Part shown: positions 4,234-34,912 of the stretch, piece by piece
How the letters are laid out: the number at the start of each line of letters is the position of its first letter
Numbering within the stretch: the first letter of the stretch is position 1
Assembly: GCA_029881335.1 (NCBI GenBank)
Contig: JAOUMU010000001.1
Location: 35,172-99,171 of the forward strand
Direction of reading: 5' to 3'
Length of the DNA: 64,000 nucleotides
From: Nitrospinota bacterium
GTDB lineage: Bacteria > Nitrospinota_A > UBA7883
Translations under genes and position numbers: made by a program
The notes under the pieces: model-generated
Database searches by the model: none
What the model was told of the DNA's origin: nothing
Seen by the model: the letters and a program-made list of their open reading frames with translations, nothing else

Positions 4234-4270
4234 TCTCGCAGTCTCTCCTTTTTTCCTTTCCTGACAAAGG

Positions 4271-12987: not shown

Positions 12988-13028
12988 AGAAAAATAAAAG
13001 GCCCCGACCATTCACCGGCCGGGGCCCT
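12988..13028 (-). terminator. rho-independent terminator downstream of the cytochrome c gene at 13074-14264
   Basis: GC stem GGCCCCG...CGGGGCC at 13001-13027. On the minus strand it is followed by TTTTATTTTT (12990-12999). Confidence 0.6.
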
Positions 13029-13073: not shown

Positions 13074-14264
13074 TTACTTGTCGTATTCCATGCTTATCGC
13101 ATTGTCGCCCACCTTGGCGTCCGGGTTCGAATCGGAAGTGGTCTTCACGTCCACGCCGACCCTTTGGGAAGCCAGCCTGCCGCCGCCGATGGAGTTGTAG
13201 CCGCCTTCGTTGTGGCCACGGCCAGCCATCACGCCCGCAAGCTCCAGCTCCTCGTTCATATCCTGGAAGGCGGAGTTGCTGCGGGAAGAAGCAGCTGTCA
13301 CATCGTCCGGATCCATCTCGTAGGCCGGCTTGGCGGCCAATGTGCGGATAAAGGAGACAATGTTCCAAATGTCCTGATCCTGCAGGATGTTGCCCCAGGG
13401 AGGCATGGCCGCAGACATGTTACGAGCCTCGCCGCCGCCCTTGATCACCTTGAACATCTCCAGGTTGTCGATGTAGTTGGCGTACTTCCCGTTGGTCAGG
13501 TTACGCGGGCGAGGATCCAGCTCAGCGGCTGTGGGGCCGTCACCCTTGCCGCCCCAGCCGTGGCAGTGGACGCAATAAAAGGAGAAATAATGCGCGCCCT
13601 GATCAGGATCGGTCCCGGCGATCGGGGTCTTTCCGCCATGCCTCGGGCGAGTTATGTTGTTCCACTGGTTCACCCACTCGTTGTAGTCGCCGCCCAGCTT
13701 GGAGCCGGAATCATGCTTACGGAACCAAACCTCGGTCACGCCAGATTTTTCAGCCCAACCGGACTGGGTGTCGCCCAACTGGCCGGTCCACTTGTTTTTG
13801 AAGCGCTTCTCGATGGAGGACGCCAGCGGGCTTTTGTTCTGCGAGGTCAGCTTGCCGCCGCCGAGGGCCGCAGGCAGGTCCGCGCCTATTTTGCCAGGGC
13901 TGGAAGCAACCTTACCAACACCGGTCAGATAATCGAAGCCGGCCACGCCGTAGGTCGAGTGGCCCGAGCCCGTGCCCTTGGTCTTGGCGTCATCGCCCCA
14001 TCCGGCCACGTTGGCCGCTTCGGCCTCCCTCAAAAAAGCCTCCTGGGCTTTATCAGCGGCTTCCTGTGACAGGTCGCCCTCTTTTTTCGCCGCATCGAGC
14101 TCGGCTTTCGACTTGGTCCGCTTGGCCATCGCCTCGTTGGACGTCACCAGCGAGCCTGTGAAGGCAAACGCCAGGAACAACGCAAGAATAATCCTGAATT
14201 TCATAGATCCCCTCCAAATTAAAAATAAAGAGTTATTGAATATCACCCCTAAGGATTTACGCAA
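13074..14264 (-). CDS. periplasmic monohaem cytochrome c with a long N-terminal extension
   Basis: Signal peptide (an alternative start MKFRIILALFLAFAFTG is likely). About 230 residues of Lys/Glu/Gly-rich low-complexity sequence follow. Then a class I cytochrome c domain, YCVHCHGWGGKGDG...MPPWG. It is monocistronic, with promoter and terminator regions on both sides. Confidence 0.7.
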   Translation of the reverse strand: MRKSLGVIFNNSLFLIWRGSMKFRIILALFLAFAFTGSLVTSNEAMAKRTKSKAELDAAKKEGDLSQEAADKAQEAFLREAEAANVAGWGDDAKTKGTGSGHSTYGVAGFDYLTGVGKVASSPGKIGADLPAALGGGKLTSQNKSPLASSIEKRFKNKWTGQLGDTQSGWAEKSGVTEVWFRKHDSGSKLGGDYNEWVNQWNNITRPRHGGKTPIAGTDPDQGAHYFSFYCVHCHGWGGKGDGPTAAELDPRPRNLTNGKYANYIDNLEMFKVIKGGGEARNMSAAMPPWGNILQDQDIWNIVSFIRTLAAKPAYEMDPDDVTAASSRSNSAFQDMNEELELAGVMAGRGHNEGGYNSIGGGRLASQRVGVDVKTTSDSNPDAKVGDNAISMEYDK

Positions 14265-14564: not shown

Positions 14565-15188
14565 TCATTGATGGTAGGTGGTTTTCCCCATATTGACAAT
14601 GCAACCGCCGAAAAACCATTTGTCATCGTGGGAGTAGACTGTAACGTTTTGCCCCTCCCGGATCTTTTTCATGGAGCAGTCATAGCTCGCGCTCCTGACC
14701 TTTTTCCCATCATGCTCGGGGGCCGCGGTCTTATCTGGATACGACACATCCACTGGCACGTATACGTTGGTGGCCCTTTCGTATTCGGCGTTCACCGGGT
14801 CATCTTCCAGCGCGACCTGGTAGTATGGGTCCCCCACCTTTGTTTGGGCCCCGGGGGGGAAAAATCCTTTCTCGGCCCAGGTGATACCAATCTGGAAAGT
14901 GGGGGTCACATTCAGATATATCTCCTTGTACTGTTTATAGCTCCCCTCCAGGGACCTTTCCTTGTCCCCCTTGTTCATCTGGCGCATGAATTTCAGTTGC
15001 CTGGCTGTGACATGGTTAATGTCGAAAATGGTCTTGTAGTCGGACTCCTGAACCGCCTTGATATACCTTTCCAGTTCCTTGTCAGGATCACCAGGGATTT
15101 TATCAACGCATCCGGCGGCCAAAACCAAAGCCAGCCCAGCTAGCATCAGCGAGCGGGCCATCGGCTTACCAAACAACTTGCGGTTCAT
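14565..15188 (-). CDS. hypothetical lipoprotein
   Basis: Signal peptide plus LAAGCVDK lipobox. It overlaps the cytochrome b gene by 23 nt. Confidence 0.4.
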   Translation of the reverse strand: MNRKLFGKPMARSLMLAGLALVLAAGCVDKIPGDPDKELERYIKAVQESDYKTIFDINHVTARQLKFMRQMNKGDKERSLEGSYKQYKEIYLNVTPTFQIGITWAEKGFFPPGAQTKVGDPYYQVALEDDPVNAEYERATNVYVPVDVSYPDKTAAPEHDGKKVRSASYDCSMKKIREGQNVTVYSHDDKWFFGGCIVNMGKTTYHQ

Positions 15189-16437
15189 ACCAATGCCTCA
15201 TCATCCAGCGGTTGTCCACCACCAGGGGGTTCCTTAGCGTATCCTTGTAAGTCACGGGGGGGATGCCCATCCTGTCCCCCATTGACGCGTTATGGCAACA
15301 ATTGCACCCCATCCAGGGTGATTTCACACTACCCAATGTGAATCCAAAGAGCAGCAATCCGCAAAGCGTGGCTCCGACTCCCGCATATGCCACCGCTTTG
15401 AGCTTTCGACGGCCAGCTGGAACCCTGGCCAGCTCCTCTTTGCGCTTCCGCTTGACAATGAAGGGGAGAGCCAGAGCCATGACCAGCATCACGAAGGGAA
15501 TCCAGAAAAGGTAGAAACCCCAGTCTCTGGGGGGATAGTACCAATATGGCATCAGGAAAGTGACAAAATACCACTCCGGCGCGGGGATGAATTGACCCTC
15601 CATCGGCAGAGGTATCTGCTGTGGATCCTGGCTGGGGATGGGGAACAGCACGCTGAGAGAGACCAGCGCCACCACAAAGGGGAGGAACGCCACAAGCTGG
15701 CGGGCCGCGTAATCCCAAAAACCCCGCTTTCGCAGACGGGTAAGGCAATGGATCTCCAGCAGGACGAACGCCGTTATTGGAAGAACAATGTCATGGATTA
15801 CAAAGTTTCTGGTGGGGGTGTAGCTTTCCATGAAGAATGAGTACATCCAATCCCCAAAAAGGGGAATGTTTTTCAGCCAGTTGTTGAACATCTCCATCAT
15901 CCAGTAGCCTTTCCACTCCCATGGCAGGATAGTGCCGCTGATCAGAAAGCCCATATAGACGATGGACATGGCCACTCCGGTGATCCAGTTGAGCTTCCGG
16001 CCTCCCTGGAAATCCTTACGGAAATATCCACGCCAGAGATGAACGAAGATGGCCACGCCCAGCAGAAACGCTCCGTATCGGTGGAGATTGCGGGTGAAGG
16101 CGCCCAGGTATGTTTCGTTGTTGAAATACTGGACTGTCTTGTATGTATCCCGCAGGCTTGGCTCGTAATAGAAGATCATGTATAGCCCGGAGAGAAGCTG
16201 CAGGATAATCAGAAGCAGGGCCGCGCCTCCGAAATAATGGCGCCAGTTGAGCCGACGGGGTTTTATCCAGCCCCAAAAACCTCTGTTTCTCTCGAAATCA
16301 TAGTGATGGGGTCGGCCTGGCTGGCTTGTTCTTTTTCCCCTGGCATAAAGATTACCAGGAGCATGACTTGTTTCTTCAATCACTGGGTCGGACATAGCTT
16401 TGTTTAACACCGAGATACTGCAATTAAACCGGCCCAC
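15166..16437 (-). CDS. fused cytochrome b6 / subunit-IV (cytochrome b of a bc or b6f-type complex) with a C-terminal CxxCH motif
   Basis: N-terminal half has cytochrome b helix A/B signatures (YFGGAALLLIILQLLSGLYMIFYY, FVHLWRGYF). C-terminal half is PetD/SUIV-like (PEWYFVTFLMPYWYYP). After the last TM comes a short tail containing GCNCCHN, which is a CxxCH motif. The start may lie 14 codons downstream (MSDPV...). Confidence 0.75.
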   Translation of the reverse strand: MGRFNCSISVLNKAMSDPVIEETSHAPGNLYARGKRTSQPGRPHHYDFERNRGFWGWIKPRRLNWRHYFGGAALLLIILQLLSGLYMIFYYEPSLRDTYKTVQYFNNETYLGAFTRNLHRYGAFLLGVAIFVHLWRGYFRKDFQGGRKLNWITGVAMSIVYMGFLISGTILPWEWKGYWMMEMFNNWLKNIPLFGDWMYSFFMESYTPTRNFVIHDIVLPITAFVLLEIHCLTRLRKRGFWDYAARQLVAFLPFVVALVSLSVLFPIPSQDPQQIPLPMEGQFIPAPEWYFVTFLMPYWYYPPRDWGFYLFWIPFVMLVMALALPFIVKRKRKEELARVPAGRRKLKAVAYAGVGATLCGLLLFGFTLGSVKSPWMGCNCCHNASMGDRMGIPPVTYKDTLRNPLVVDNRWMMRHWYEPQVVW

Positions 16438-16492
16438 CGAGCGGCGAGCCTTTACTGCAGATGAAGTAAATTCTGAATGGATTCAGAAACCG

Positions 16493-17056
16493 CTAAAAAA
16501 GTGGATGCATAGGCCTGTCAAACCAAAGCCTCTTTCTTTTTGTTCCAGCCGAGCCGACCAGCTTCCATTTTCCTTTTTCCAGGGTCAGAATGTGCTCCTC
16601 GTTGGTCCAAGTATCCACCGGCACACGATCCGCCTCCCCCTTCCGCTTGCCAAGCAGGATTCCGGAGCAGCCGATAACCACCAGCCCGCCATCCGGGGAG
16701 TAGTTGACAAGCTTCATATTATGCATGGTGCTCATGCCGTCGAAGTTGCTGAATATCCTTTCCCATATCCTCCTGGCGGCATCCTTGTCATGATCCCCGT
16801 TCTTATAGCTGTCGGAGTACAAGTTCATCAGCGATTCCAGGTTGCCCGTTTTTATGGCGTCTTCGGCGTCCTCGAAGAACCGGGTCACATCAGCCAAGGT
16901 CTCCTTGCTGATTTTTCCCTTCATCTCCGGAGAAACCCTGATGGTGTGGAAGCCGTGACCAGTGTCAGCGCCCCAGGCCGGAGTGGCAGGTGAACTGGCG
17001 AAAAGAAAGATAGCCAGGAATATTGGCAACGCGCCAAGGTTTGCGCTGTGTCTCAT
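16493..17056 (-). CDS. periplasmic NTF2/SnoaL-like protein of unknown function
   Basis: Signal peptide. Its size and secondary-structure pattern fit DUF4440/SnoaL-like proteins. No cofactor motifs. Confidence 0.35.
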   Translation of the reverse strand: MRHSANLGALPIFLAIFLFASSPATPAWGADTGHGFHTIRVSPEMKGKISKETLADVTRFFEDAEDAIKTGNLESLMNLYSDSYKNGDHDKDAARRIWERIFSNFDGMSTMHNMKLVNYSPDGGLVVIGCSGILLGKRKGEADRVPVDTWTNEEHILTLEKGKWKLVGSAGTKRKRLWFDRPMHPLF

Positions 17057-17202
17057 ACATTACCTCCGAAGGGGATTTTTTCCGCTAGACGGCATCGACG
17101 CCCGCCCCGCAGCACTACTATACCAGATCAGGGCTCAAAAGATAACCCACCTCCCACCACATAAACTACTACTGCAAGCCCCCTCAAATCGACACGCTTT
17201 AT

Positions 17203-17242
17203 GGTAAAAAACGTGCGGCGCGTTTTTTATGGGACGCGCCGC
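17203..17242 (-). terminator. rho-independent terminator after the monohaem cytochrome c gene; it separates the bd-like/cytochrome c operon from the cytochrome b unit
   Basis: 8-bp GC stem GCGGCGCG/CGCGCCGC (17215-17242). On the minus strand it is followed by TTTTTT (reverse complement of 17205-17210). Confidence 0.6.
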
Positions 17243-17274
17243 AAACCCATTATGCTTCCGAAACAGCGGTCAGG

Positions 17275-17652
17275 CTATTTTTTGCCTTCGCATTTGCACA
17301 TACCACGCAGGTGCTTGACTAAGTCCGTTACCTCCTCATCGGTGAGGATCCCGCCCCAGGGAGGCATTTGGGTGGACTTGCCCACGGCTACGCCACCTTC
17401 CTTAATCGACTTGAAAACGCTTTCGTCAGTCAGCGAGCTCATATCCTTGGCGCTGGTATGGTTGCGCGGCTGGACAGAGAGCGCCGGGGCGTTTATCCCG
17501 CGTCCAGTCCCCTTGGAGCCATGGCACTGAACGCAGTACAAGCTATAATTATCCGCAGCCTTTTCCTTGGCGACCGCGACATCAGCCTGGCCCAGAAAGC
17601 CAACGGCCAATATCGCGAAAAACAGTATCGAAGCTAATCTAGTCATAATCAT
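17275..17652 (-). CDS. periplasmic monohaem cytochrome c (c553/c551-like)
   Basis: Signal peptide, CVQCHGSKGTGRG and a distal MPPWG methionine ligand region. Confidence 0.7.
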   Translation of the reverse strand: MIMTRLASILFFAILAVGFLGQADVAVAKEKAADNYSLYCVQCHGSKGTGRGINAPALSVQPRNHTSAKDMSSLTDESVFKSIKEGGVAVGKSTQMPPWGGILTDEEVTDLVKHLRGMCKCEGKK

Positions 17653-17669
17653 TTATCCTATCTCCCCGG

Positions 17670-18341
17670 TTAATCAGCCGTCATCAGAAAGTTAACCATC
17701 AGTTGCAAGGTGGCATCGTCAAAATCCCTCTTGGCCATCCAGACCTTCGGATCCCAATGCTTCGGATCCTGAATGAAGCTGTACATCCAGTCAGGATTCA
17801 GCCTCTCGCCGATCCCCTCGAATGTGGGGCAGGAAATGCCGCCGCCCTTACCCGGGAACACATGGCAGGCGTTGCACGCCTCATCCTTCATCATCACCAC
17901 GCGGGCCCTGGCTTTTTTGACCTTACCCGGTTTAAACACACCAGTCTTCATACTGGCGTCTTTTAAGGTCATCAGGTAATCCGCCACAGCGGCCGCGTCC
18001 CCCGCAGAGAGCTTAGACGCGCATTTCGGCGGATCCTTCACTACATCCGCCTCGCCGTTCAGAGAAATGCTGTTCAAATAAACCACTCCACCAGCCCTTA
18101 ATGTAGTCGGGCTCTGAATATACTTTACCAGCCAATCCTTGTTGAACTTGCTGCCAGCGTAAAACAGATCGGGCGCCTTGCGTTTCATAACTTCCGCGAT
18201 CGTCTGCGCCGACGGACCCACCATCTTGTGACAGGAACCGCACTTGTTGCTTTCCACCAGCGCCTTACCATCCGCGGCCATCGCCGACGGAGCTGCCACC
18301 GCCATCAACGCGGACACGGCTAAAGCCAAAATCCTTGTCAT
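17670..18341 (-). CDS. periplasmic dihaem cytochrome c
   Basis: Signal peptide. Two CxxCH motifs (CGSCHKM, CNACHVF). Confidence 0.7.
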   Translation of the reverse strand: MTRILALAVSALMAVAAPSAMAADGKALVESNKCGSCHKMVGPSAQTIAEVMKRKAPDLFYAGSKFNKDWLVKYIQSPTTLRAGGVVYLNSISLNGEADVVKDPPKCASKLSAGDAAAVADYLMTLKDASMKTGVFKPGKVKKARARVVMMKDEACNACHVFPGKGGGISCPTFEGIGERLNPDWMYSFIQDPKHWDPKVWMAKRDFDDATLQLMVNFLMTAD

Positions 18342-18389
18342 ACCGAAACCTCCTTTATCTAATTAATCGCAATTATGCGTGTTCGACAA

Positions 18390-19958
18390 TCAGTCTTCTT
18401 TTCTTCCCACCACAGAGAAGATAAACTGCCCTGCGACCAGCAGGACGAAGACCATCAAAGGAACCATTACCACGGCGGAGCCGGTCTCCGGCTTGAGCAG
18501 AAGCCAGCGCCAGGTGGTCAAGGTGTGCTTGGAGCCGATTTCGCCATTGGAACCGTCCCAATTGGCGAATGCGATGGGAATATACTTGCCCGCCGCGAAC
18601 TGGGTGTCCTTATCCTTGGCGTCGGTGACCAGGTTTCTCCTCATCATCACCTTCCATGTGCCGTCCTTGTACGAGCCAGTGGAAACAAAGCCCGCCGCCG
18701 CCGCGTCCGAAACGTCCTTCTTGCCGGAGCCGATGGTGGAGAACATGCTGCCCGATTGTCCCTTTTCCACATCGCCGCTGTTCCAATACATCATGCTCAC
18801 CGGCCTGGAAGCGTCTCCATGACCGAAATAAGGCTTGCCGGACGCCAGATTGTCCAAATCCAGCGGAGTCTGAATGGCCACGCCATCTGAGCCAAGTGCG
18901 CCCCAAGCCAGCATGGCGGAGGTTGGATCCCCTTTCACGCTCCTTGTCCTGTCGTCCCACTCCAGCAGAAAAGCCACTTCCTTATCGGTAAATGTCGACT
19001 TCACCAGGATGCCGTTGTTGGATGGATCGTAAATCCTCTCATCCTGGATTATCTGAGGCACCAGGAAAAAAGTAGTCCCTTCAGCAATGTCCCAGGCCGG
19101 ATCATTCTCATCCGTGGGCAAAGTCTCCCGGTAGACCCCTTTAACCACGATCTCGCCCTCTTTGACCTCCATGCGGGAATCCGCCAGCGACATCACGTAG
19201 TTGACAACATGCCAGCGATCCTCCACCGAAAGCTTCCCCGCGCCGGTCTTCTCCGCCGCATGGGCCGGCATCGGCGTATTCGGGATACCTGAGGTGATTC
19301 TGGCATAGATATCCTTCGGATCATTTCCACCACGGAAGGTCCAGGGCTGGGTCAGGTTCCGCGGCCACAGTTTGGCGCCGCTCTCCTCTTTCAGCTTCTT
19401 GATAGTGTTCCCCTTGCCACCCTCGCCATGACACTCAAAGCACTTGGCGTCCTTGAACAGCTGCTTGCCTTTGGCGATACTGTCAGGAGAGCTGGGCGCG
19501 GGAGAAGGGTAGGCCATCTCCGGAGGATTTTCCATATCCTCAAACATATCGGTCAGGCTCTTTATATAGGCCACCAGATCCCACCGTTGTTTCTCATCCA
19601 AAACCTTGCTCCACGCCGGCATGCTGGTGCCTGGCATCCCGTCGGAGATCATTCTGAAGAGATCCTCGTCTCTGGGCAGATCCGAATCAGGAGCGCTGGA
19701 CCTGTATTTATATACGCCGTCCGCGAAATTGCGCGGAGGTGGTATCATAAAATCGGCTCCGGGCCCATCGGCCTCTCCCTCTTTCCCATGACACCACCAG
19801 CACTTTTTCATGTAAACGGTCTCGCCGTTTTTCACGTCACCTGCAGCGGCAATTGCCGGACCCGTGAGGGCCGCGAAATACACAGCCAAGGCCACTGCGG
19901 CTGCAACCGTCATTATTCCTTTTGTTGAACGCATCGCTATCCCTTGCCTATAAATCAA
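18390..19958 (-). CDS. dihaem cytochrome c fused to an approximately 260-aa Cys-free domain, with a C-terminal membrane anchor
   Basis: Signal peptide. CWWCHGKEGEADG and CFECHGEGGKGN, each followed by a MPxxxMP-type ligand region. Then a large domain without Cys or His motifs. The protein ends in a hydrophobic helix (VVMVPLMVFVLLVAGQFIF). It overlaps the upstream gene by 4 nt. Confidence 0.65.
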   Translation of the reverse strand: MIYRQGIAMRSTKGIMTVAAAVALAVYFAALTGPAIAAAGDVKNGETVYMKKCWWCHGKEGEADGPGADFMIPPPRNFADGVYKYRSSAPDSDLPRDEDLFRMISDGMPGTSMPAWSKVLDEKQRWDLVAYIKSLTDMFEDMENPPEMAYPSPAPSSPDSIAKGKQLFKDAKCFECHGEGGKGNTIKKLKEESGAKLWPRNLTQPWTFRGGNDPKDIYARITSGIPNTPMPAHAAEKTGAGKLSVEDRWHVVNYVMSLADSRMEVKEGEIVVKGVYRETLPTDENDPAWDIAEGTTFFLVPQIIQDERIYDPSNNGILVKSTFTDKEVAFLLEWDDRTRSVKGDPTSAMLAWGALGSDGVAIQTPLDLDNLASGKPYFGHGDASRPVSMMYWNSGDVEKGQSGSMFSTIGSGKKDVSDAAAAGFVSTGSYKDGTWKVMMRRNLVTDAKDKDTQFAAGKYIPIAFANWDGSNGEIGSKHTLTTWRWLLLKPETGSAVVMVPLMVFVLLVAGQFIFSVVGRKED

Positions 19959-20725
19959 TGATGTTCCGCCATTACCCGAGGCTTATGCCCCGTGTAATCG
20001 TACAGAAAGATGATGACCTTCCAGACTTCCTCTTCACTTAGCAGATGGTGCCAAATCGGCATGGCCGATATCCAGGGAGTTCCCTCCGAAGGCAAGCCCG
20101 GACCGCCCGTGCTTATACGCCAGAAGACGAAAGACTCCGTCAACTGGGCGATGGTGCCGATATCCACAAAATTGGCCGGCATTGGGTTGAATCCTTCCGC
20201 ATAGGGGCCCTTGCCCAGCATCATGTCGCCATGGCAGAAGTAGCAGTTCTGGTAATAAACCTTACCGCCCTCTTCCGAGTGCTTGGCCAAATTCGCCGTA
20301 TCCTCGCGGAAGGGATTTTTTAAAGTCTGCAGGTTGTAGGATTTCCCCCACGCCTTTGCGGCGGATGGCGGCGCAGGATGCACCGACCGCAGTTCCACTG
20401 GCGCGTCGAAAGTGGGCTTAACGTATTGGTACGCCACGTAGGCCCCGAATAGCCCCACCACCAGTATGACTCCCATCCGGAGCCTTCCCTTCGCAGGATT
20501 GGTGTAAAGATCCATGACTGGACCGATCGAGGCGTTATAGCCCTCCTCCGAGAAAGAATTGATCAGCAACGCTCCGGCCACCATGAAGAACACATACATC
20601 TTCATGACCGAAGTGGGAACCACCGGCCAAGTCCCAGGATGCAGCACAGACCCCACCAAGGGGACTCCGAATTTAAGCAACAGGTACCCAACAAGCACCG
20701 TTATCCAAGGTTTCAGTAATTTCAT
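19955..20725 (-). CDS. membrane-anchored (3 TM) monohaem cytochrome c
   Basis: Three N-terminal hydrophobic helices, then NCYFCHGDMMLGKGP with a methionine ligand region (WISAMPIW). Confidence 0.65.
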   Translation of the reverse strand: MKLLKPWITVLVGYLLLKFGVPLVGSVLHPGTWPVVPTSVMKMYVFFMVAGALLINSFSEEGYNASIGPVMDLYTNPAKGRLRMGVILVVGLFGAYVAYQYVKPTFDAPVELRSVHPAPPSAAKAWGKSYNLQTLKNPFREDTANLAKHSEEGGKVYYQNCYFCHGDMMLGKGPYAEGFNPMPANFVDIGTIAQLTESFVFWRISTGGPGLPSEGTPWISAMPIWHHLLSEEEVWKVIIFLYDYTGHKPRVMAEHH

Positions 20726-20742
20726 CAGATAAACCTACCCCC

Positions 20743-21582
20743 TTATTTCTTGCCCGCCAGGGCGTCGACGATCATATTCATTTCCGCAACCGTCATCTTC
20801 CCCGCGTAATCGTCAGGCATCATGTCGGCATCGAACTCTTCCACAATAAAATCATTGGGCTTCAAGATCGATTCGACTATATACTTCTCCGCGGACAAAC
20901 CCTTCACTCTTTTGCCTGCCGTGGAACTCATCTTCGTCAGATCGGGGCCGATATCGCCTCCTTCTTCCACACCAGGCACTATGTGGCAGGAGAGACAGTC
21001 GAACTTGGCGAAAGCCTCCGCCGCGTTCTCCGCCACCCTGATCTCCTCTGGAGCATCATCAGCCGGCGCTCCCTCATCCCCCGTAGGCAGAGGCACTGTC
21101 ACCTCCACGCCAGCCGTATTCTGGAGAAACGCGATAACCGCGTTTATCTCCACTTCTGAAAGCCCGATGGCGCCCTTGCTGACGTCCGGCATGGGGCTAA
21201 TGGTATCGTTTGACCCCTTCTTGCCGAACCCCTCCACCACCATCGCCGAAACGTCTATCATCGATTCGCGGATATACTCCTCAATGTTCGTGGCCTTTCC
21301 CTTGTAGCGGGGATCCTTGATCCGCTCCATGGATACGGAAGCCACCGGCTCCAGAAGCGGGGCGCGACCGCCCACAGGATTGTGGCACAGGGTGCATGTC
21401 CCCTTGCCGTTGTAGATCTTCTCGCCAACGGCGATAAACTGATCCATGGTAATGTCTCCGCCCAGCTTCTCCTCCACGGGAGGCGCCTCCGGCACGATCA
21501 GCGGAAGGCCGAACGTGGTGTATCCGGCGAACCCGCAAATAACCGCCAGGCTGAAAACAACAATTTTAAGTAAAGCTTTCAT
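20743..21582 (-). CDS. dihaem cytochrome c with an N-terminal anchor or signal
   Basis: CTLCHNPVGG and CLSCHIVPGVEEGGDIGPDL. 279 aa. Confidence 0.7.
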   Translation of the reverse strand: MKALLKIVVFSLAVICGFAGYTTFGLPLIVPEAPPVEEKLGGDITMDQFIAVGEKIYNGKGTCTLCHNPVGGRAPLLEPVASVSMERIKDPRYKGKATNIEEYIRESMIDVSAMVVEGFGKKGSNDTISPMPDVSKGAIGLSEVEINAVIAFLQNTAGVEVTVPLPTGDEGAPADDAPEEIRVAENAAEAFAKFDCLSCHIVPGVEEGGDIGPDLTKMSSTAGKRVKGLSAEKYIVESILKPNDFIVEEFDADMMPDDYAGKMTVAEMNMIVDALAGKK

Positions 21583-21592
21583 CTATACCCCC

Positions 21593-23536
21593 TCAGTGCC
21601 CCGCCTCTTGCTCTTCCTTATTCTTGGCGGCCAGAATCGGCATCCAGAACATGAAGAACACGAGCGCCATGAATATCATAACTATGATGGTTACCACCCA
21701 TGCCGCGTAGGGCAGAGTGGGAGTGAACGCCTCTATAGAGTTATCGCGGAACACGGTGTACACGTGCCAGTGCTGACGGATGGCGGACCGGCAATAGCCC
21801 ATCAGCCCCATCAGCCACGTAAAGGAGACCGCAAGCATGAACAGGGCGTACTGCGCCCGGTCCGGCATATGGCCCCACCGGAACACTCCGATATCCTTGG
21901 CCCCCCTGAATTCCAGCGTCTGGAAAACAATACCCAACACACAGACCACCGCCGTGGTGCTCACCTGCGGTATCGACAGCCCGATCCGGATGTTGGCGGG
22001 AATCCAGTAGCTGTATACACCAAGAAACACAATATTGACAATGGCTGCCGTAAAGAGCGCAATCTGGATCGGCAGTCCGTTTCTGGCCCAGAAACCGTCA
22101 CCCGCAGGTCGTGAATTGCTCCGCATGAACAACTGGAAGCTTAAAAACGTGGACAATATCAGGATATTGACCGCCGTATTTTTCGCCGCCATGACTCCCA
22201 GCGGACCCAACACGGAGTGATGCGCCCCGCCGATCTGCGAAAGCTCCTTACTGTTCATGATCAGCGTATGGGGAGTGAACCACGTGAGAAACGCGATCAC
22301 GATAATGATCCCCAGCGGTTGAATGATGTAGTAGAACCTCTTGGAAGCTTCCGTGCGGCCCAAAGAGCACCAGAGGTAGTAGTTGGCCGACAGGAATATG
22401 GCCCCGATCAGCACCGCCTGCAGAATAAAGAGCCAGGCAAAGACACCACCCATCAGGGTGATACCCATCTGCTGCGAATAGTCATAAACCTCCTTGGTGA
22501 GCCAGTATCCCGCGAATGGCAACGGCAGAAGGCCGGCCATGGCGATAATGAACGAGGTGTACCCCATCCAGTCGTAGTGGGCCTTCTCCTCCGCCGAGCT
22601 GGTGGTAATAAACTTGAACGCCGCATAGGCCGCCGTCAGAGAACCACCGTAGGCGATGTTGGCTATGAACCGGTGCAGGTTCAGCGGATTCCAAAGCTTG
22701 CCATGAATCGCCGCCCAGGAGTCGCCCAGGAACTGGCCCTCCGGCCCAATCCCCGAGGGCGCCATCATGAACGAGGCCCAGGAGTTGGAAAGAACCATCA
22801 ACACCATGCCGGAGCCGTTAAGCCCCAAGCCCAGGCCCAGGTGCAACCACTTCAGACCCGGCGAGGAACTCATCTTGTCCCACCCGTAATAATAGGTGTA
22901 AACAAAGAAGCTCTCCGCGAAGAACATCAAGGCGTAAATGATCATCGTCTTGCCAAAGACAGAGGTCATGTACGCCATAAAATCCGGATAGAAGACCACC
23001 AGCAGGATCGAAAGCAAGCCTCCAAAAGAAGCCGCCAGTGAAAACCCGGTCATGGTCACCTTCATAAACTCGTGCGCCATATGGTCGTATCGCTTGTCCC
23101 CGGAGAGGACACCGATAAGCTCGATCACCCACACGAAGATGGGCACTCCCAGCACGAAGGCGGCGAAGAACAAATGAAGTTGCGCCGCAATCCAAACAGC
23201 CAGGCGGCCGTCAACCCCCGCCACCCGGGGATAGTCCTTCTCCTCCAGAGCGGGAGTGGTCATCGGCTTCCAACCCTCGTCGGCCGCCTCCTCCCCTTCC
23301 GTCGCGGCCCCTTCGGCAGGCGCCATCTCTGCGGAGGCTTCATCATGTGCAGGCTGCGCGGCCTCATTGGCCCACGCCTGCCCGGCAAAGAATCCCGCGC
23401 CATCGGACATGGGAGCCAGGCCCCCAGCCAGAACGACCATGAGGAACAGGCTCCCCACAAGCGCGAGAAACCGGCCTCCCTTGTTTTTTTCCTTCAGCCG
23501 GTCACAAACGCCGGCGCTCTTGGTCAGCTTTGACAA
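21593..23536 (-). CDS. cytochrome bd-like (CydA-related) polytopic membrane protein; first gene of the cytochrome operon
   Basis: 647 aa with about 14 predicted TM helices. The first helices resemble CydA helix 1-2 (W..AAQLHLFFAAFVLGVPIFVWV...). The CydA GRQPW signature is absent and no cydB is adjacent. Residues 40-110 are an Ala/Glu-rich extension. The call rests on topology and partial motif similarity only. Confidence 0.5.
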   Translation of the reverse strand: MSKLTKSAGVCDRLKEKNKGGRFLALVGSLFLMVVLAGGLAPMSDGAGFFAGQAWANEAAQPAHDEASAEMAPAEGAATEGEEAADEGWKPMTTPALEEKDYPRVAGVDGRLAVWIAAQLHLFFAAFVLGVPIFVWVIELIGVLSGDKRYDHMAHEFMKVTMTGFSLAASFGGLLSILLVVFYPDFMAYMTSVFGKTMIIYALMFFAESFFVYTYYYGWDKMSSSPGLKWLHLGLGLGLNGSGMVLMVLSNSWASFMMAPSGIGPEGQFLGDSWAAIHGKLWNPLNLHRFIANIAYGGSLTAAYAAFKFITTSSAEEKAHYDWMGYTSFIIAMAGLLPLPFAGYWLTKEVYDYSQQMGITLMGGVFAWLFILQAVLIGAIFLSANYYLWCSLGRTEASKRFYYIIQPLGIIIVIAFLTWFTPHTLIMNSKELSQIGGAHHSVLGPLGVMAAKNTAVNILILSTFLSFQLFMRSNSRPAGDGFWARNGLPIQIALFTAAIVNIVFLGVYSYWIPANIRIGLSIPQVSTTAVVCVLGIVFQTLEFRGAKDIGVFRWGHMPDRAQYALFMLAVSFTWLMGLMGYCRSAIRQHWHVYTVFRDNSIEAFTPTLPYAAWVVTIIVMIFMALVFFMFWMPILAAKNKEEQEAGH

Positions 23537-24294
23537 TATAGCCCCCTTTTATGTATCTGTATCGGTATCGTTTTTAATGATTGCGCCGCTATTAATGACC
23601 TTCAGGCTGGAATAACCACAGCCCCTGCCACCTTTGCGCTGTTTCGTCCAAAACATAGAAACAGACTAGAAACACACACAAAGCGATCGCGAACACAATT
23701 ACCTTCTGTCCAGTCAAAAGATTCCCCTTTGCAAATAGTTTGATATTCCATCAAGGCAGACAATGCGCCAATACCCCCGCCCCTATTAAGAGAGGTTTAT
23801 CAAGCAAAAACCATGCCCCGAAAAACCATCATCGCGCCATACCCCGTAATTACAACAGGTTGCGTTAATCCCTCAACCACTAATCCTCGATATAAGGCGA
23901 TTTGCCTAGCCTTGGCAGCCGATTTTGCCAGTTACGTTGCATTCGGATAACAAAACATCATAACGCTTTGTTGAATTCCGATCACAATATGGATTCATGG
24001 TTCCATCTCCTCCGTGAAACCATACTCCTTGAGCGTCCCGATATACAAAACCGCCGAACTTCCCCGAATCCCCAAAGGCTCCAAACATAATACTAGAAAA
24101 TATATGCAAACAAAAGGACTTTCCAGGCCTCCATGCCAAAAATCGAAAGCATTTCTCATTTAGGCGTATACATTTCGTGCAATTCGCGCCGAATCATGTA
24201 AGGTTTCATGTTGACAAACTATTCAAAAAGTTGCATTTTAATAAAACGTTAGTGGTTCCATTCTCAAACTCATTTAACCTATTTGGAGATACCT

Positions 24295-24501: not shown

Positions 24502-25968
<1,467 letters not shown>

Positions 25969-25980
<12 letters not shown>

Positions 25981-26645
25981 AAGAGCTTTCCCTGCTGGTG
26001 CAGCATGGCGAGAACGTCCAGGCCGTTTCCTGCGCCGAGAAACTTTTGGCCCAGTCGTGCCCCATGGAAGATATCGTAAAGGCTCTCTCCGATGGCCTGG
26101 AAGTTCTCCGCAACAAGTGCACCATAGAAAACTTTCAGTTGCTCGACGTTTTACTTGCCACCAGGGCCATGGTGGAGGTGGTGGATGAATGCCTGGCCAG
26201 AAAGCTCCAGAACGAATTGGACAATCTGGCCACCACCCACGAAGCCACCCAAAGCGCAGAGCCGACCAGGACTTTGGTCATCGGCACTATCCAGGGGGAT
26301 ATCCACGATCTTGGAAAGCATATTGTGGCCACCTTGTGCAGATTCAAAAACTTGCGGGTAATAAATCTGGGCAAGGATGTTTCCGTGGAGCAGTTCGTGG
26401 ACACAGCCATCGCCGAGAATGCCGATTTCATTGGCGTCTCCAGCCTTATGACAGTCTGCCTCTCCAGGATAAGCGAGATAAAAAATGAGCTGGCGCGGCG
26501 GGGACGAAACGAGATTACGGTCGTGGCAGGGGGTGGCGCCGCCCAACAAAGCTCGCCTGACAGGCTCAATGTCGATTATGTCGCACACGACGCTTTCGAC
26601 GGGCTCGATTATTTTCTCAGCGACATCCTTCCAGTTAAAAGTTGA
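25969..26645 (+). CDS. cobalamin-binding corrinoid protein (MtaC/MtbC-type: helical cap plus Rossmann B12-binding domain)
   Basis: DxHxxG motif (GDIHDLGKHIV), SxL (SSLMT) and GG (VVAGGGA). The ATG at 25969 overlaps the last codons of the regulator. The longer track ORF from 25767 is rejected because it lies inside the regulator gene. Confidence 0.75.
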
Positions 26646-29383
26646 ATTCCACAGAGAGAATACAAGCTGTCATCGGCTTTGGCCGGGTGGATAGGCCACC
26701 CGTGGCCCCGGAGCTTATCGCGGTCACGGCCACCATCTGTGGCGCGGCGGTGGGCGATTATGTCAAGGATGGCGCCGTTATCGCCCAATGCCAGATGGAA
26801 GCCGCACGCATAACCGGCTCTGATGCTTTATTCGCCGCCGCCGACCTGTGTGTGGAGGCGGAAGCCCTGGGATGCGAAGCCCATTTTCCCCGGAACAACT
26901 ACCCGCATATAAAAAGCCCTATCGTCCACTCCTATTCAGACCTGAAACAGCTTCGCCTTCCAGATCCCACCTCGGATGGAAGGATGCCCCAGATACTGAA
27001 AGCCGTGCGGCTTCTGGCTGACGATTCGGATGGCCGCCTGGTCCTCGGCAACGCCGTAGGACCCATCACCATGGCTTCCAGAATCATGGATATAGAGAAG
27101 ATGCTCTATATGATAGTGGATCAGCCAGATAAATTCAGGGAGATAATCGAGTTTTGCGAAGGTGTCGCCAGCCGGTTCGTCGACGCGATCCTGGAGGCCG
27201 GCGCCGACGGAATATTGATCTTTGATCCTTCAGCTTCCCCGGCGCTCCTGCCACCCAGGATTTTCCGCGAATTCGAGCTGGAGCCGATCCGCCGCATCCT
27301 GGCGGGGGCCAAGCAAAAAAATCCATCCGTAGTCACCTGGTACTCTGTAGCGGGCCCGGTCCAGACCAACACCGCCATCATCTCCGCAGTGGGGGCCGAT
27401 GTCACCACGGTGGATTACCCCGTACCGCTGCAAACCGCCATGGAATACTCCGGCCACACAGTGATAAACGGCAACATCAGGCCCGCCCTCTTTCTGGAAG
27501 GGACGCCCTCGCAGGTATATGACGAGGCGATGACACTTTTAGACCAAACTCGCCTGTCGGAGCGATTCATACTCGGAAGCGGCTGTGAAATCCCGATCAA
27601 CTCACCGGCAAGGAACATAATGGCCCTGCGACGCGCAGCCAATGATCACGCCTCCCAGATTACCCAGATCAACGAACCAGCGGCAGGGAAAGTCCGGGCG
27701 ACGTTTCACCCCCACAACCGCGCCATTTATGTGGAGACAGGCCAGACCATTCTGGAGGCGGCCGCCATGGGGGGCGCCCCCATCACCACATATTGCGACC
27801 TCACCGGTGTATGCGCCGAATGTGTGGTGACCGTGTGCAATGGGAAGGTCTCCGCGCTGGACATGATTGAAGAGGCCCAACTGGGAAGCCTGGGCGAAGG
27901 GGGAGGAAGGCTGGCCTGCCTCGCCAAAATCCAGGGAGACGTGGAGATCTACGTTCCCTTTTCCTCGCGCCGCATCCCGGACAAGGCTTGCGCCCCTGCC
28001 CAACTTTTCGACGAATCGACCTGTGCCGATTCCCACTCGTCGGATTTCGACCCCGTGTTCCCCCCCATGCGGGAGAAGGCCAGGATCTCCGCCGCCGATC
28101 ATGGCTCCAGGCTGCTTCATCAGGATAATTTGGGCGCAGGGGCACCTTGCGGGGGCAATTTGCCCTGTCATGGGGCGATGTCCCGCTCCTCGTTCGCCGT
28201 GGCGGTGGATATGTCTGGTGAAAACGCCGTGGCCTATGTCCACGACATTGGCAGCGCTGAATTCCGCCACGCAGGCTCCTTCCTGGGCCCGGTGGCCGCC
28301 GTGGGGCTCAATTCCGCTGAAATCGATACCAGAAGAGCCTTGGACCCTCCAATAAGCCGCAAACTGCGGGAAGAGTCCACCCGGCTTTTCAATTCCATAG
28401 TCAACTGGCTTTACGAAAGCCACTCTATAATGCCGGAGCGAGTACGGGGCCTTCTGGTCACCGGCTGCCCCATGGCCGACGATACCTTGCGGCCCCCCGG
28501 CGAGTCCCTGCCTGGAGAATGGGCGCAAATCACCTGCGGAGGGATCGCCGAAGCGCGGATGTCCGACTATCCCGGCCTGAAGGTGCTTATGTGGCCTAAA
28601 CCACCCCACCGATTCGGCGGCGCATCCAGAGATGCCGCATTCATCCTTGCCACCATGCCCTCCCCCGCTGCTGAACCTGCGCTGTTTATACACCTGGGTT
28701 CATCCGGTTCGATAACCGCCCACTACCAGGGGCGATATTACACCCATCGATTCCCCTTTGGTAATTTGCTGGAGCGCCCTATCCCCGGCGTATCCCGGGG
28801 ATTTTTCAACTTCCTGATTCATGAGGCGCAAGTCGATGGGCGGGGTGTAACCAGTTTCAAAACCTTCAACGGCTCGGCCCCCCTGGGATTGCTGGGTACG
28901 GCCATGGTGGGAGCGGCCGCCGGAATGAAACGCCACGGAATCATCGACGACAAGGGCTTTGTCCAGGGCAAGTGGGCCCCTGTGGTGGAAAACCGATTTG
29001 TGGTGGTTCCCAAGCAAAAGACCGCCGGATACAGCCCTATCACCATCGGCTGGGAAGATATCGACAAGCTGATGATAGGGACGGGAGCATGCTCTCGGGC
29101 CGTATCGGATGTCCTGGACGCTGTCCATCTTTCCCCGGAGCAGGTGGAACGGGTTTTCGTCTCCGGCCCGTTTGGCGTGGTGGCGGACCCGGCGGACCTG
29201 ATTGAACTCGGCTTTATCCCGGATTCGTGGAAGGGGAAAATACAGTTTGTTAAAAACGCCGCAGGGCTGGGTGCGCGGAAGGCGCTTTTCTCTTCCCGGG
29301 CCAGAAAAAGGGCGGTGGTCATAGCATCCTCCATGGCGCCCCTGTCCCAGGCCCCAGGCGCCAGATATGGAGAATCCAAATGA
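26642..29383 (+). CDS. three-domain fusion: MtaA/CmuA-family (URO-D fold) methyltransferase, plant-type [2Fe-2S] ferredoxin, and RACo-type ASKHA ATPase (DUF4445), i.e. a reductive activator of corrinoid proteins
   Basis: Residues 1-340 match the URO-D/MtaA pattern (PVQTNTAIISAVGADVTTVDY, ...GSGCEIP). Residues 350-440 contain C-x5-C-x2-C...C (YCDLTGVCAECVV...RLACLA). Residues 450-913 are Gly-rich ASKHA-like. Start and stop overlap the neighbouring genes by 4 nt (ATGA). Confidence 0.7.
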   Translation: MNSTERIQAVIGFGRVDRPPVAPELIAVTATICGAAVGDYVKDGAVIAQCQMEAARITGSDALFAAADLCVEAEALGCEAHFPRNNYPHIKSPIVHSYSDLKQLRLPDPTSDGRMPQILKAVRLLADDSDGRLVLGNAVGPITMASRIMDIEKMLYMIVDQPDKFREIIEFCEGVASRFVDAILEAGADGILIFDPSASPALLPPRIFREFELEPIRRILAGAKQKNPSVVTWYSVAGPVQTNTAIISAVGADVTTVDYPVPLQTAMEYSGHTVINGNIRPALFLEGTPSQVYDEAMTLLDQTRLSERFILGSGCEIPINSPARNIMALRRAANDHASQITQINEPAAGKVRATFHPHNRAIYVETGQTILEAAAMGGAPITTYCDLTGVCAECVVTVCNGKVSALDMIEEAQLGSLGEGGGRLACLAKIQGDVEIYVPFSSRRIPDKACAPAQLFDESTCADSHSSDFDPVFPPMREKARISAADHGSRLLHQDNLGAGAPCGGNLPCHGAMSRSSFAVAVDMSGENAVAYVHDIGSAEFRHAGSFLGPVAAVGLNSAEIDTRRALDPPISRKLREESTRLFNSIVNWLYESHSIMPERVRGLLVTGCPMADDTLRPPGESLPGEWAQITCGGIAEARMSDYPGLKVLMWPKPPHRFGGASRDAAFILATMPSPAAEPALFIHLGSSGSITAHYQGRYYTHRFPFGNLLERPIPGVSRGFFNFLIHEAQVDGRGVTSFKTFNGSAPLGLLGTAMVGAAAGMKRHGIIDDKGFVQGKWAPVVENRFVVVPKQKTAGYSPITIGWEDIDKLMIGTGACSRAVSDVLDAVHLSPEQVERVFVSGPFGVVADPADLIELGFIPDSWKGKIQFVKNAAGLGARKALFSSRARKRAVVIASSMAPLSQAPGARYGESK

Positions 29384-30417
29384 AAGAAGGTTTTTTCAAA
29401 AAGCTCCTGGACAACGCTTCCGACCTGATCTGGGCCGTGGACATGGAGGGGCGCTTCATATACATAAACGACAACATCAAGGAATGGGGCTACGACAAGG
29501 AGGAGTTGATCGGCCAGCCGCTGTTGAGCATTCTAAACGCCCAGCGGATAGGGAAACGGGAGACCCGCCGCTCCATAATGGGCATCCACCAGACTTACGA
29601 GATGGAGATCGTGGACAAGAAGGGAACCGCCCACAAAGTGGTGGTCAAATCCTCGCCGCTGGAGGAGGAGGGGACAATCGTGGGAGTCATGGGGATCATC
29701 CGCGACATCACGGAGCTGGAGCGACTGGAGAGAAAACTGAAGGATGAGGAACGGCTCGCCTCCCTGGGCCGACTGGCCACCGGCATCGCCCACGAAATCC
29801 GCAATCCCCTTTCATCTGTGAAGATGAACCTTTCGATCCTGAAAAAGCGACTCAGCCCCAAGGGAGTGGATGTGGAGCATTTCGAGATCGCCCAGGAGGA
29901 GGTATTCCACCTGGAGAAGATCGTCAGCGAGCTTCTCGATTACGCCAAGCCGATCACGCTGGATCTGAAGATATGCGACCTGACCCAGTTGATCGATGTC
30001 GCCATTGCCGCCGTGGCGGCCCCTTGCGCAGAAAAAGGTGTCACCATCAGGACGGAGTATGACGGCAGAGGGCACATGGCGCTGCTGGACAAGACCAAGA
30101 TCACCCAGGCGCTGATCAATATATTGCTCAACTCGGTGCAGGCCTCCCTGGAAAACTCGGAGATTTTCGTGGGCGCGGAGACTGTGAAGTTTCCCTCGTC
30201 CGACAGGGCCAGGGTGGTGATTCGCGATCAGGGGTATGGAATCCCGGAGGATAACCTGAAATATATATTCGATCCGTTCTTCACCACCAGAAAGGATGGC
30301 ACCGGCCTGGGACTCTCCATCGTCCGCAACATCGTGGACAACCACGAAGGCTCGATCACTATAGAAAGCGAACAGGGCAAAGGCGCCACCGTGTCCATAG
30401 AGCTTCCCGCGCCGTAG
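29380..30417 (+). CDS. cytoplasmic PAS-domain histidine kinase
   Basis: No TM helix. PAS domain (LLDNASDLIWAVDMEGRFIYIN), H-box (AHEIRNPLS), and N/G boxes (GTGLGLSIV). Confidence 0.8.
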   Translation: MKEGFFKKLLDNASDLIWAVDMEGRFIYINDNIKEWGYDKEELIGQPLLSILNAQRIGKRETRRSIMGIHQTYEMEIVDKKGTAHKVVVKSSPLEEEGTIVGVMGIIRDITELERLERKLKDEERLASLGRLATGIAHEIRNPLSSVKMNLSILKKRLSPKGVDVEHFEIAQEEVFHLEKIVSELLDYAKPITLDLKICDLTQLIDVAIAAVAAPCAEKGVTIRTEYDGRGHMALLDKTKITQALINILLNSVQASLENSEIFVGAETVKFPSSDRARVVIRDQGYGIPEDNLKYIFDPFFTTRKDGTGLGLSIVRNIVDNHEGSITIESEQGKGATVSIELPAP

Positions 30418-31250: not shown

Positions 31251-31261
31251 TGATAATTTCC

Positions 31262-34111: not shown

Positions 34112-34112
34112 A

Positions 34113-34892: not shown

Positions 34893-34912
34893 AGGTAAAT
34901 ACTACTCCGTCT

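Follow-up and report, generated by a model that had tools for sequence, protein, structure and literature searches.

The closest described relatives of the system treated here are the canonical cytochrome bd oxidases, CydAB(X), for which structures are available (PDB 6RKO, 5DOQ, 7OY2), and the OR-N2 subfamily of the cytochrome bd superfamily, which Murali, Gennis and Hemp (2021) defined from genomes and whose operons, according to the supplement of that study, carry multiple cytochromes c together with an ebdC homologue. A bd-like cluster has also been discussed for Nitrospira, Nitrospina, and Kuenenia since 2010-2013 (Lucker et al., 2010, 2013). Here we analyze a stretch of 64,000 nucleotides (nt) from a Nitrospinota bacterium (assembly GCA_029881335.1, contig JAOUMU010000001.1, positions 35,172 to 99,171), referred to as the window, in which a locus of ten minus-strand open reading frames (ORFs), compared by coordinate and named A to J, is headed by a gene for a CydA relative (Table 1). 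The locus is very probably an OR-N2 complex of bd-like, cytochrome c and EbdC-like subunits. An earlier note on this DNA, made from the sequence alone, had named minus-strand ORFs that all exist where it placed them, and had proposed a complex of a type not yet described. The latter does not stand, as the locus fits OR-N2, the clusters of Nitrospira, Nitrospina, and Kuenenia, and a cluster of Candidatus Manganitrophus noduliformans, TO_1; it is therefore a new case of a known kind, described from genomes and never studied biochemically. What is new is a conserved small ORF of about 40 amino acids (aa), named X, and a sharper definition of the operon.

The described clusters share a gene content that is close to that of the window. 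In Nitrospira moscoviensis, a bd-like gene is accompanied by two membrane cytochromes c and by an alternative NxrC with a transmembrane (TM) helix and two haem motifs, and this cluster, which is duplicated nearby, is among the 40 most transcribed genes (Mundinger et al., 2019). The cluster is conserved in Nitrospina and Kuenenia, its bd-like protein lacks the Q-loop, and all known quinol-binding residues were found to be absent from the Nitrospina protein (Lucker et al., 2013). The Kuenenia gene table lists kustd1712 as cydA-like, kustd1711 as dihaem, kustd1710 as monohaem and kustd1709 as dihaem, which equals the order A-B-C-D of the window; the same order is found in the N. moscoviensis pairs bd-like_3/alt_NxrC_2 and bd-like_2/alt_NxrC_1 and in N. 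gracilis. Unlike in these organisms, the window has no genes for nitrite oxidoreductase (NXR), cupredoxin or multicopper oxidase near the cluster. TO_1 consists of a bd-like oxidase, two cytochromes c and a periplasmic cytochrome b of the complex iron-sulphur molybdoenzyme (CISM) type, is expressed at the 98th percentile and has been proposed to reduce O2 (Yu and Leadbetter; 10.1101/2021.11.15.468770), whereas the window encodes the periplasmic cytochrome b as a fusion with a dihaem cytochrome c and has two more soluble cytochromes c in the operon. A comparison of Nitrospinota genomes from 2024 found that most members of the phylum carry OR-N1 and OR-N2 genes and called the family "yet uncharacterized," and a comparison of Nitrospirales from 2025 stated that the oxygen affinity of the bd-like oxidase "still remains unknown." The consensus of this literature is that of a putative cytochrome c-oxidizing O2 reductase (Murali et al., 2021; the 2024 and 2025 comparisons). 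The earlier note had likewise regarded the family as biochemically uncharacterized, in agreement with these genome papers; the literature search turned up no cryo-EM paper on any OR-N enzyme, and searches of PDB by sequence and with Foldseek returned no solved structure nearer to A than canonical CydA.

Several independent comparisons identify A as a CydA relative. It matches the Pfam profile Cyt_bd_oxida_I (PF01654) with 77.4 bits against a cut-off of 26.2, residues 111-353 aligning with profile positions 3-240 of 418, and its AlphaFold2 model (predicted local distance difference test, pLDDT, 76; predicted TM-score, pTM, 0.73) has CydA chains as best Foldseek matches, with a probability of 1.0 and target-normalized TM-scores of 0.45-0.59. 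Since all significant matches in the Pfam, PDB sequence and fold searches are to CydA, those in PDB and Foldseek being canonical chains only, an NrfD/PsrC-like identity was rejected, and the earlier assignment of this protein to the CydA relatives is borne out. According to the model and a hydropathy scan, A begins with a signal or anchor helix and an acidic linker, followed by about 13-14 TM helices. When A was aligned to E. coli, Geobacillus, and mycobacterial CydA, with conservation taken from 34 and 97 homologues, E. coli His19 fell on H121, Glu99 on Y201, Glu107 on E208, Phe114 and Phe116 on Y215 and Y217, His126 on H232, His186 on H288, Met393 on M449 and N453, Glu445 on S584, and the motif RQPW on RQHW (587-590). 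These residues, with W590 for the motif, are 97-100% conserved among the 97 homologues, H121 being present in 96 of them. A thus has the His19-equivalent ligand in TM helix 1 and the four-helix haem core that mark the CydA superfamily.

Within the superfamily, A shares with canonical CydAB(X) the N-terminal helix fold, the haem ligands His19 and His186/Met393, Glu107 and His126 of the proton channel, and an RQxW motif after the last-but-one helix. In contrast to the canonical enzymes, it has no Q-loop and no CydB alongside, Glu99 and Glu445 are replaced by Y201 and S584, which are invariant or almost so, and A has four TM helices more, a further set of invariant histidines and partners that are c-type cytochromes. 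The profile and PDB alignments end ahead of the Q-loop, in whose place the AlphaFold2 model has a two-TM hairpin (366-420) together with a segment on the periplasmic side, and another hairpin is inserted at residues 482-542. Of the additional histidines, H423, H440, and H591 are 95-100% conserved, while H589 is found in 75 of 83 orthologues. All four sit in a bd fold, would be close to M449 and S584 at the periplasmic face according to the predicted topology, and may be what earlier authors read as additional haem- or copper-binding ligands.

The features of A and of its operon agree with OR-N2. A has the residues H/Y/E/H/H/M-N/S/W at E. coli positions 19/99/107/126/186/393/445/441, with spacings that differ by 0-4 residues from the OR-N2 reference (Table S6 of Murali et al., 2021), and the locus resembles OR-N2 in its about 14 TM helices, the missing Q-loop, several cytochromes c with an EbdC homologue, and in requiring no second cydA-like gene. 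OR-N1 was rejected on the signature, as it has Gly at the Glu107 position, where A has E208. OR-C, which has haem c motifs in the CydA-like subunit and 8 TM helices, and a haem-copper oxidase were rejected as well, because A contains no CxxCH motif and no COX1 match was obtained for A, the nine other proteins of the locus or 30 further ORFs of the window. The assignment to OR-N2 therefore follows from PF01654, the CydA fold, the Table S6 signature, the helix number and the operon content; no tested feature of the window lineage differs from the OR-N2 description, to which it adds the position of E-F after D and a module of cytochrome b6, subunit IV and haem c.

The 30 further ORFs, nearly all of at least 200 aa, were scanned with Pfam and contain no CydB, haem-copper oxidase, Rieske protein or molybdopterin subunit, as the earlier note had stated for the 64 kb, and no second bd-like gene was found in the window. 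Cyt_bd_oxida_II is absent from the scanned window ORFs and from the called genes of the relatives, and a Rieske-motif regular expression applied to all window ORFs of at least 60 aa gave a single match, in a shadow frame. With these Pfam and motif scans negative, a hidden cydB, Rieske gene or second cydA in the window was rejected.

Table 1. Features of the bd-like locus and its surroundings (positions refer to the window; TM, transmembrane helix)
Feature	Position	Strand	Basis or remark
X, 41 aa, one TM, (M)TGQKVIVFAIALCVFLVCFYVLDETAQRWQGLWLFQPEGH; candidate small subunit	23592-23717	-	homologue profile
A, cytochrome bd-like subunit, OR-N2 type, 647 aa	21593-23536	-	PF01654, fold, signature residues
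B, membrane-anchored dihaem cytochrome c, 279 aa	20743-21582	-	2 CxxCH, N-terminal TM, Pfam Cytochrom_C
C, monohaem cytochrome c, 256 aa	19955-20725	-	1 CxxCH, 3 TM (hydrophobic segments)
D, dihaem cytochrome c with EB_dh haem-b domain and C-terminal TM, 522 aa ("alternative NxrC" type)	18390-19958	-	PF00034 twice, PF09459
E, periplasmic dihaem cytochrome c, 223 aa	17670-18341	-	2 CxxCH, signal peptide
F, periplasmic monohaem cytochrome c, 125 aa	17275-17652	-	1 CxxCH, signal peptide
Intrinsic-terminator-like hairpin 3' of F	17206-17242	-	sequence and fold
G, secreted NTF2-fold protein, lineage-specific	16493-17056	-	AlphaFold2 and Foldseek
H, fused cytochrome b6/subunit IV with C-terminal haem c	15166-16437	-	PF00033
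I, lipoprotein-like, 207 aa, paired with H	14565-15188	-	ORF
J, 396 aa, K/E/A-rich N-terminal region and C-terminal monohaem cytochrome c	13074-14264	-	ORF, haem motif
Strong terminator-like hairpin 3' of J, ending the second unit	12998-13028	-	13-bp stem with 9 GC pairs, then T run
Sigma-54-like -24/-12 promoter candidate GGGCATGGTTTTTGCT	23803-23818	-	one mismatch to TGGCAYG-N4-TTGCW
Sigma-54-dependent response regulator, divergent, candidate operon regulator	24502-25980	+	syntenic genes in L003, L004, L005
B12-binding protein	within 25767-26645	+	3' of regulator
URO-D/Fer2/RACo-type fusion, 913 aa	26642-29383	+	divergent gene set
PAS histidine kinase	29380-30417	+	divergent gene set

The family of A is large: 7263 of 8000 scored 90%-identity clusters match, 174 50%-identity clusters do so at E <= 1e-30, and a scan of species genomes yielded at least 557 relatives, confirmed among the first 600 pattern matches. 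For synteny, the window proteins were compared by tblastn with 85 loci (loci are given L numbers below). Among 80 species genomes, the order A-B-C-D is kept in essentially every locus with enough flanking sequence, in Nitrospinota, Nitrospirota, Thermodesulfobacteriota/"Deltaproteobacteria," Acidobacteria, and Fibrobacteres as well as in Alpha-, Gamma-, and Zetaproteobacteria (Gallionella and Mariprofundaceae included) and Magnetococcales. By this comparison of sequences the gene arrangement is far beyond chance, and the possibility that the cytochromes c are unrelated neighbors of A was rejected on the synteny of 80 loci. E-F follows D in Nitrospinota-type relatives and a few other loci, while in Proteobacteria the pair usually stands ahead of A, where it often forms the end of a paralogous operon, A'B'C'D'EF, and F was always found together with E. 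The comparison of loci thus defines A-B-C-D as the conserved unit, E-F as a movable pair and G-H-I-J as a lineage-specific neighbor. The six-gene unit A to F of the earlier note, which had A heading an operon of c-type cytochromes, is upheld in its A-B-C-D core, whereas E-F is movable and the upstream X was overlooked. The genes are closely spaced (A-B 10 nt, B-C 17 nt, a 4-nt overlap of C and D, E-F 17 nt), although not throughout within 20 nt as that note had it, the distance between D and E being 48 nt.

The paralogue A', of about 730 aa, shares about 40% identity with A, keeps the OR-N2 signature, has Asp at the position of H589 and is not accompanied by the small ORF. A tandem arrangement of A'B'C'D'EF followed by (X)ABCD is present in the complete genome of Pseudopelagicola sp. 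nBUS_20 (Rhodobacteraceae; CP179202.1; L001, 2664-14949), and further tandem-module loci of Proteobacteria are L026, L030, L032, L040, L042, L043, L045-L047, L051, L055, L059, and L070. These modules recall the duplication of bd-like_3 and bd-like_4 reported in Nitrospira.

B to F together contain eight CxxCH motifs (2+1+2+2+1) rather than the about 10 haems that had been ascribed to the six-gene operon, a total that is reached only with H (CNCCH) and J. The haem numbers are kept among homologues, with two CxxCH motifs in 76 of 78 homologues of B and one in 70 of 70 homologues of C. The signal peptides of E and F look cleavable, and together with the membrane anchors of B, C, and D they fit a predicted complex with five c haems and one b haem at the periplasmic face of A, supplied by soluble donors. 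The b haem is expected in D, whose C-terminal half, earlier described as a 260-aa Cys-free domain, is an EB_dh domain, the haem-b domain of the gamma subunit of type II dimethyl sulphoxide (DMSO) reductases (PF09459, 7.5e-16, 59.3 bits against a cut-off of 33.3). Its match to TIGR03477 (7.5e-25) reaches 87.5 bits, below the cut-off of 169.85 and hence short of equivalog level, and the molybdopterin subunit that would be the partner in a type II DMSO reductase was not found among the scanned ORFs of the window. In an alignment to the gamma subunit of ethylbenzene dehydrogenase (EbdC), H380 and H478 of D fall at Met108 and Lys201, which we take to be the axial ligands of haem b in EbdC, and 46 of the D-type homologues have Met/His or His/His at these two positions. 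The dihaem part of D (residues 43-260) is related to PDB chain 6h5l_B, a "conserved hypothetical cytochrome protein" (2.8e-43), presumably the Kuenenia dihaem cytochrome Kustc0457, a redox partner of an enzyme like hydroxylamine oxidoreductase.

The resemblance of D to the "alternative NxrC" raises the question whether the complex is a membrane anchor and electron acceptor dedicated to NXR, so that the locus would mark a nitrite oxidizer, all the more as the cluster lies in or near the NXR loci of Kuenenia, Nitrospina gracilis, and Nitrospira. We regard this as very improbable: no molybdopterin or NxrB-like gene was found among the scanned ORFs of the 64-kb window, and the cluster is also present in Rhodobacteraceae, Gallionella, Zetaproteobacteria, and Magnetococcales, which include no known nitrite oxidizers. 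Moreover, according to the 2024 comparison, OR-N is retained in the Nitrospinota classes other than Nitrospinia, although these apparently do not oxidize nitrite. The missing NXR in the window and the frequency of the cluster in lineages that are not known to oxidize nitrite make an NXR-specific role unlikely here.

Upstream of A, an alignment of the window with two related loci (L003 and L005) exposed the small ORF X, which lies 55 nt 5' of A, begins with TTG and is preceded by the Shine-Dalgarno-like sequence AAGGGGA. Six-frame segments of all loci (2.04 million residues) were searched with a regular expression and then with a profile hidden Markov model of the homologues, and all 73 profile matches lie on the operon strand. 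A homologue of X is located directly upstream of 67 of the 75 A-type genes with enough upstream sequence, across phyla, and upstream of none of the 16 A' paralogues. The homologues share a motif that is roughly F-x-x-L-D-x(6-7)-Q-G-L-x-L-[IF]-F; X has no match to any Pfam or NCBIfam model, is labeled "hypothetical protein" where it was called, is mostly unannotated, and its window copy is missing from the protein collection. Neither the Murali preprint nor its supplements mention it. X is a candidate small subunit, comparable in kind only to CydX and CydS. In one Nitrospinota metagenome-assembled genome (MAG; L063, 3596-10665), the order is small ORF, D-like gene, B, C, D, and then A, with the X homologue preceding the D-like gene and not A.

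As an overall explanation, we lean slightly toward a cytochrome c-dependent terminal O2 reductase complex of the OR-N2 type; for O2 reduction itself, judged from sequence, the case is evenly balanced. In such an enzyme X, A, B (two haems), C (one haem), and D (two c haems and the haem-b domain) would form the core membrane complex, to which the soluble E (two haems) and F (one haem) would most likely deliver electrons. Electrons from periplasmic cytochromes c would travel along the six haems in B, C, and D, reach a b558-type haem of A that is ligated by His288 and Met449, and move on to an active-site haem ligated by His121, where O2 would be reduced. What is left of the CydA channel (Glu208, His232, Tyr201) would admit protons from the cytoplasm, and membrane potential would be generated by charge separation as in canonical bd oxidases, with cytochrome c rather than quinol as the donor and no CydB. 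Two features of the proteins suggest an oxidase of this kind, namely that A has lost the Q-loop and the quinol part but keeps the putative ligand of the active-site haem and some of the cytoplasmic proton channel, and that the predicted haem-b ligand positions of D are filled by Met/His or His/His. Many of the hosts (Gallionella, Zetaproteobacteria, Magnetococcus, Nitrospinota) belong to lineages of microaerophiles that use high-potential donors. Published transcriptomes of aerobic nitrite and Mn(II) oxidation rank the homologous clusters with the most highly expressed genes (Mundinger et al., 2019; 10.1101/2021.11.15.468770).

Several points weigh against this assignment. The argument for O2 reduction is a homology that covers only the first four or five helices, and no published assay of any OR-N member was found in the literature. 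With Ser584 in place of Glu445 and Tyr201 in place of Glu99, A may lack the di-haem active site of canonical bd. The association of X, A, B, C, and D in one complex is inferred from synteny only, and the topology of A and the periplasmic placement of H423, H440, H589, and H591 were derived from helix boundaries and the positive-inside rule. An EbdC/NxrC-type domain as in D normally docks a periplasmic molybdoenzyme. In addition, the strictly anaerobic anammox bacterium Kuenenia has A-B-C-D inside its NXR locus according to its gene table, and an exchange of electrons with NXR or with the quinone pool would account for this no less well than O2 reduction.

The presence of the cluster in anammox bacteria and the altered active-site residues Y201 and S584 could also point to a complex that reduces or detoxifies another small oxidant, such as NO, a nitrite-derived species or H2O2, at the expense of cytochrome c, with O2 as a side substrate at most. 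This appears improbable, as homologues are reported to be highly and constitutively expressed in aerobic lithotrophic growth, the hosts are mainly aerobes or microaerophiles, and no N-oxide genes are linked to the cluster among the scanned window ORFs.

Electron exchange with quinones, in the manner of an "alternative complex III," has been proposed for Nitrospina, Nitrospira, and Kuenenia (Lucker et al., 2013; Mundinger et al., 2019). In its form for this locus, which we consider unlikely, A would have a new quinone site and would not reduce O2; the equally unlikely role of such a module would be to link periplasmic cytochromes c, or a molybdoenzyme docked on D, to the quinone pool, e.g., for reverse electron transport. 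The cluster in the anaerobe Kuenenia is in line with this, as are the four extra TM helices of A and its many invariant polar residues without an assigned role, and in the window lineage a cytochrome b6/subunit IV module adjoins the cluster. However, the Q-loop is replaced by a two-TM hairpin, which also disfavors the quinol:cytochrome c alternative of the earlier note for A, and the known quinol-binding residues are gone according to the Nitrospina genome paper. Furthermore, the equivalents of His19 and of Glu107/His126 are invariant, which a mere electron wire would not need, and the uphill transfer from cytochrome c to quinone requires a coupling for which nothing in the sequence speaks. 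The candidate quinone-reactive protein of this locus is rather H, a separate protein that is absent from most other loci.

H belongs to the second unit, G-H-I-J, which is, judged by its distribution, a separate lineage-specific module: it lies downstream only in the close relatives L003, L005-L008, and L016, and in L005 unrelated genes stand between F and G-H-I-J. The earlier description of this unit as an NTF2-like protein, a fused cytochrome b6/subunit IV and a lipoprotein holds, and H additionally carries a haem c. H matches PF00033 (cytochrome b/b6) at 7e-30 with 104.7 bits and, below the respective cut-offs, the NCBIfam models ExtP (1e-37) and cytochrome b6 (6e-37); with 130 bits against a cut-off of 290 for ExtP, it is not an ExtP equivalog. 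H-x13-H, H-x14-H, the E of PEWY and the C-terminal CxxCH are invariant, so that H has the four haem-b histidines and the Qo motif of bc1/b6f cytochromes. It resembles Geobacter cytochromes of the ExtP/Cbc type in the b6-type four-His ligation, the PEWY-like motif, the periplasmic c-type cytochromes and the absence of an adjacent Rieske gene, and differs from them in the fusion of b6 with subunit IV and in the C-terminal monohaem c domain. No Rieske gene was found in the window scans or beside H in L003, L005, and L086. With the PetB/D-like H, the window partly resembles TO_2 of Manganitrophus, but lacks MrpD-like subunits.

G (AlphaFold2 model with pLDDT 79, Foldseek matches to NTF2-like proteins at about 1e-6) has only 13 homologues, the named ones all from Nitrospinota MAGs, and proteins identical to G, and to H over the annotated 414 aa, are deposited as MAG entries of Nitrospinota bacterium. 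I has no Pfam or NCBIfam family match; in the distant locus L086 (10001-13354), an H gene is followed by a gene of about 208 aa that is I-like by size and position, there is no bd-like gene, and three cytochrome c7 genes come next. The C-terminal cytochrome c of J, which follows H-I in close relatives, is 40% identical to F. In Magnetococcus sp. YQC-5 (L034, 98-6235, minus strand), a divergent operon beside E-F-A-B-C-D contains genes for a cytochrome b6 in split form, for a subunit IV-like protein of 242 aa and for several beta-propeller proteins (YNCE- and Vgb_lyase-like), and Pfam finds no Rieske protein in it. G was rejected as a partner conserved with cytochrome b in Magnetococcus, since the 206-aa protein at the same position in L034 has no similarity to G.

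H could link the quinone pool to a shared pool of periplasmic cytochrome c. This can be combined with the terminal O2 reductase reading into a more specific proposal, which is doubtful as a whole, namely that X-A-B-C-D, with X as a hitherto unnoticed subunit of wide conservation, is a haem-only cytochrome c oxidase without CydB, which binds an extra haem or metal at its histidine set and is paired with H. The histidines H423, H440, H591, and, in most members, H589 would then replace the lost functions of Glu445 and the Q-loop, serving in electron entry or as part of the active site. If this were true, the lineage would have a complete quinol-to-O2 chain without a Rieske/bc1 complex or a haem-copper oxidase.

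The first unit ends in an intrinsic-terminator-like hairpin after F, as had been noted earlier. Read from 17242 to 17206, it consists of the arms GCGGCGCGU and ACGCGCCGC, which form a 9-bp GC-rich stem with a 10-nt loop, and ACGUUUUUU comes next; the hairpin forms when the surrounding 66 nt are folded for minimum energy (-23.4 kcal/mol for the entire stretch, z = -2.3) and was missed by an automatic hairpin scan because of its 10-nt loop. At the other end of the operon, the sigma-54-like motif is located about 85 nt upstream of X, and the closest relative, L003, has GGCATAGTTATTGCT at the matching position. The motif is not enriched in the window, where 1.25 matches are expected, and L005, L007-L009, and L016 do not have it upstream of A. 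A sigma-54 promoter was consequently rejected as a statistical finding on the window-wide non-significance and is kept as a positional lead only. A -24/-12-like motif (e.g., AGGCACGCAGGTTGCT) also occurs about 90-100 nt upstream of the J homologue in L016 (17898-17913), L007 (11007-11022), L006 (17301), and L008 (17437), while none was found upstream of J in the window itself.

Divergently from X and A, the plus strand encodes the response regulator, whose syntenic counterparts in L003, L004, and L005 have Response_reg, Sigma54_activat, and HTH_8 domains. Synteny of the gene set from the regulator to the PAS histidine kinase (24502-30417) extends to L003, L004 and, with the URO-D fusion missing, L005; the set amounts to an unusual putative sensor of the corrinoid type beside a respiratory operon. 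Farther away on the minus strand (30756-36164 and 3433-5536), the window encodes Redoxin/AhpC-TSA proteins, FGE-sulfatase-domain proteins (two window copies) and unannotated proteins of about 255-290 aa. This neighborhood recurs in L003 (457-3048) and L087 (1-7613), with a CcmH-like gene at the matching position in relatives, and may be a dedicated set for cytochrome maturation or redox homeostasis. Peripla_BP_6 and DUF4340 genes are common to the window and a Hyphomicrobiales locus with an H homologue.

The window itself adds little, as it is one more copy from a Nitrospinota MAG. The gain is comparative and lies in the definition of a core, (X)-A-B-C-D, to which E-F is added as a movable pair of donors, and in the conserved small ORF X, which is relevant to expression constructs and proteomic searches. 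It further lies in Pseudopelagicola sp. nBUS_20, whose two tandem clusters may, if the strain is cultured, be easier to work with than those of slow-growing nitrifiers. The bd-like complexes of the OR-N type are presumed to serve as principal terminal oxidases in Nitrospira, Nitrospina, and Mn(II)-oxidizing Nitrospirota, and they are also found in genomes labeled Gallionella, Zetaproteobacteria, and Magnetococcales, lineages that are known as iron oxidizers and magnetotactic bacteria.

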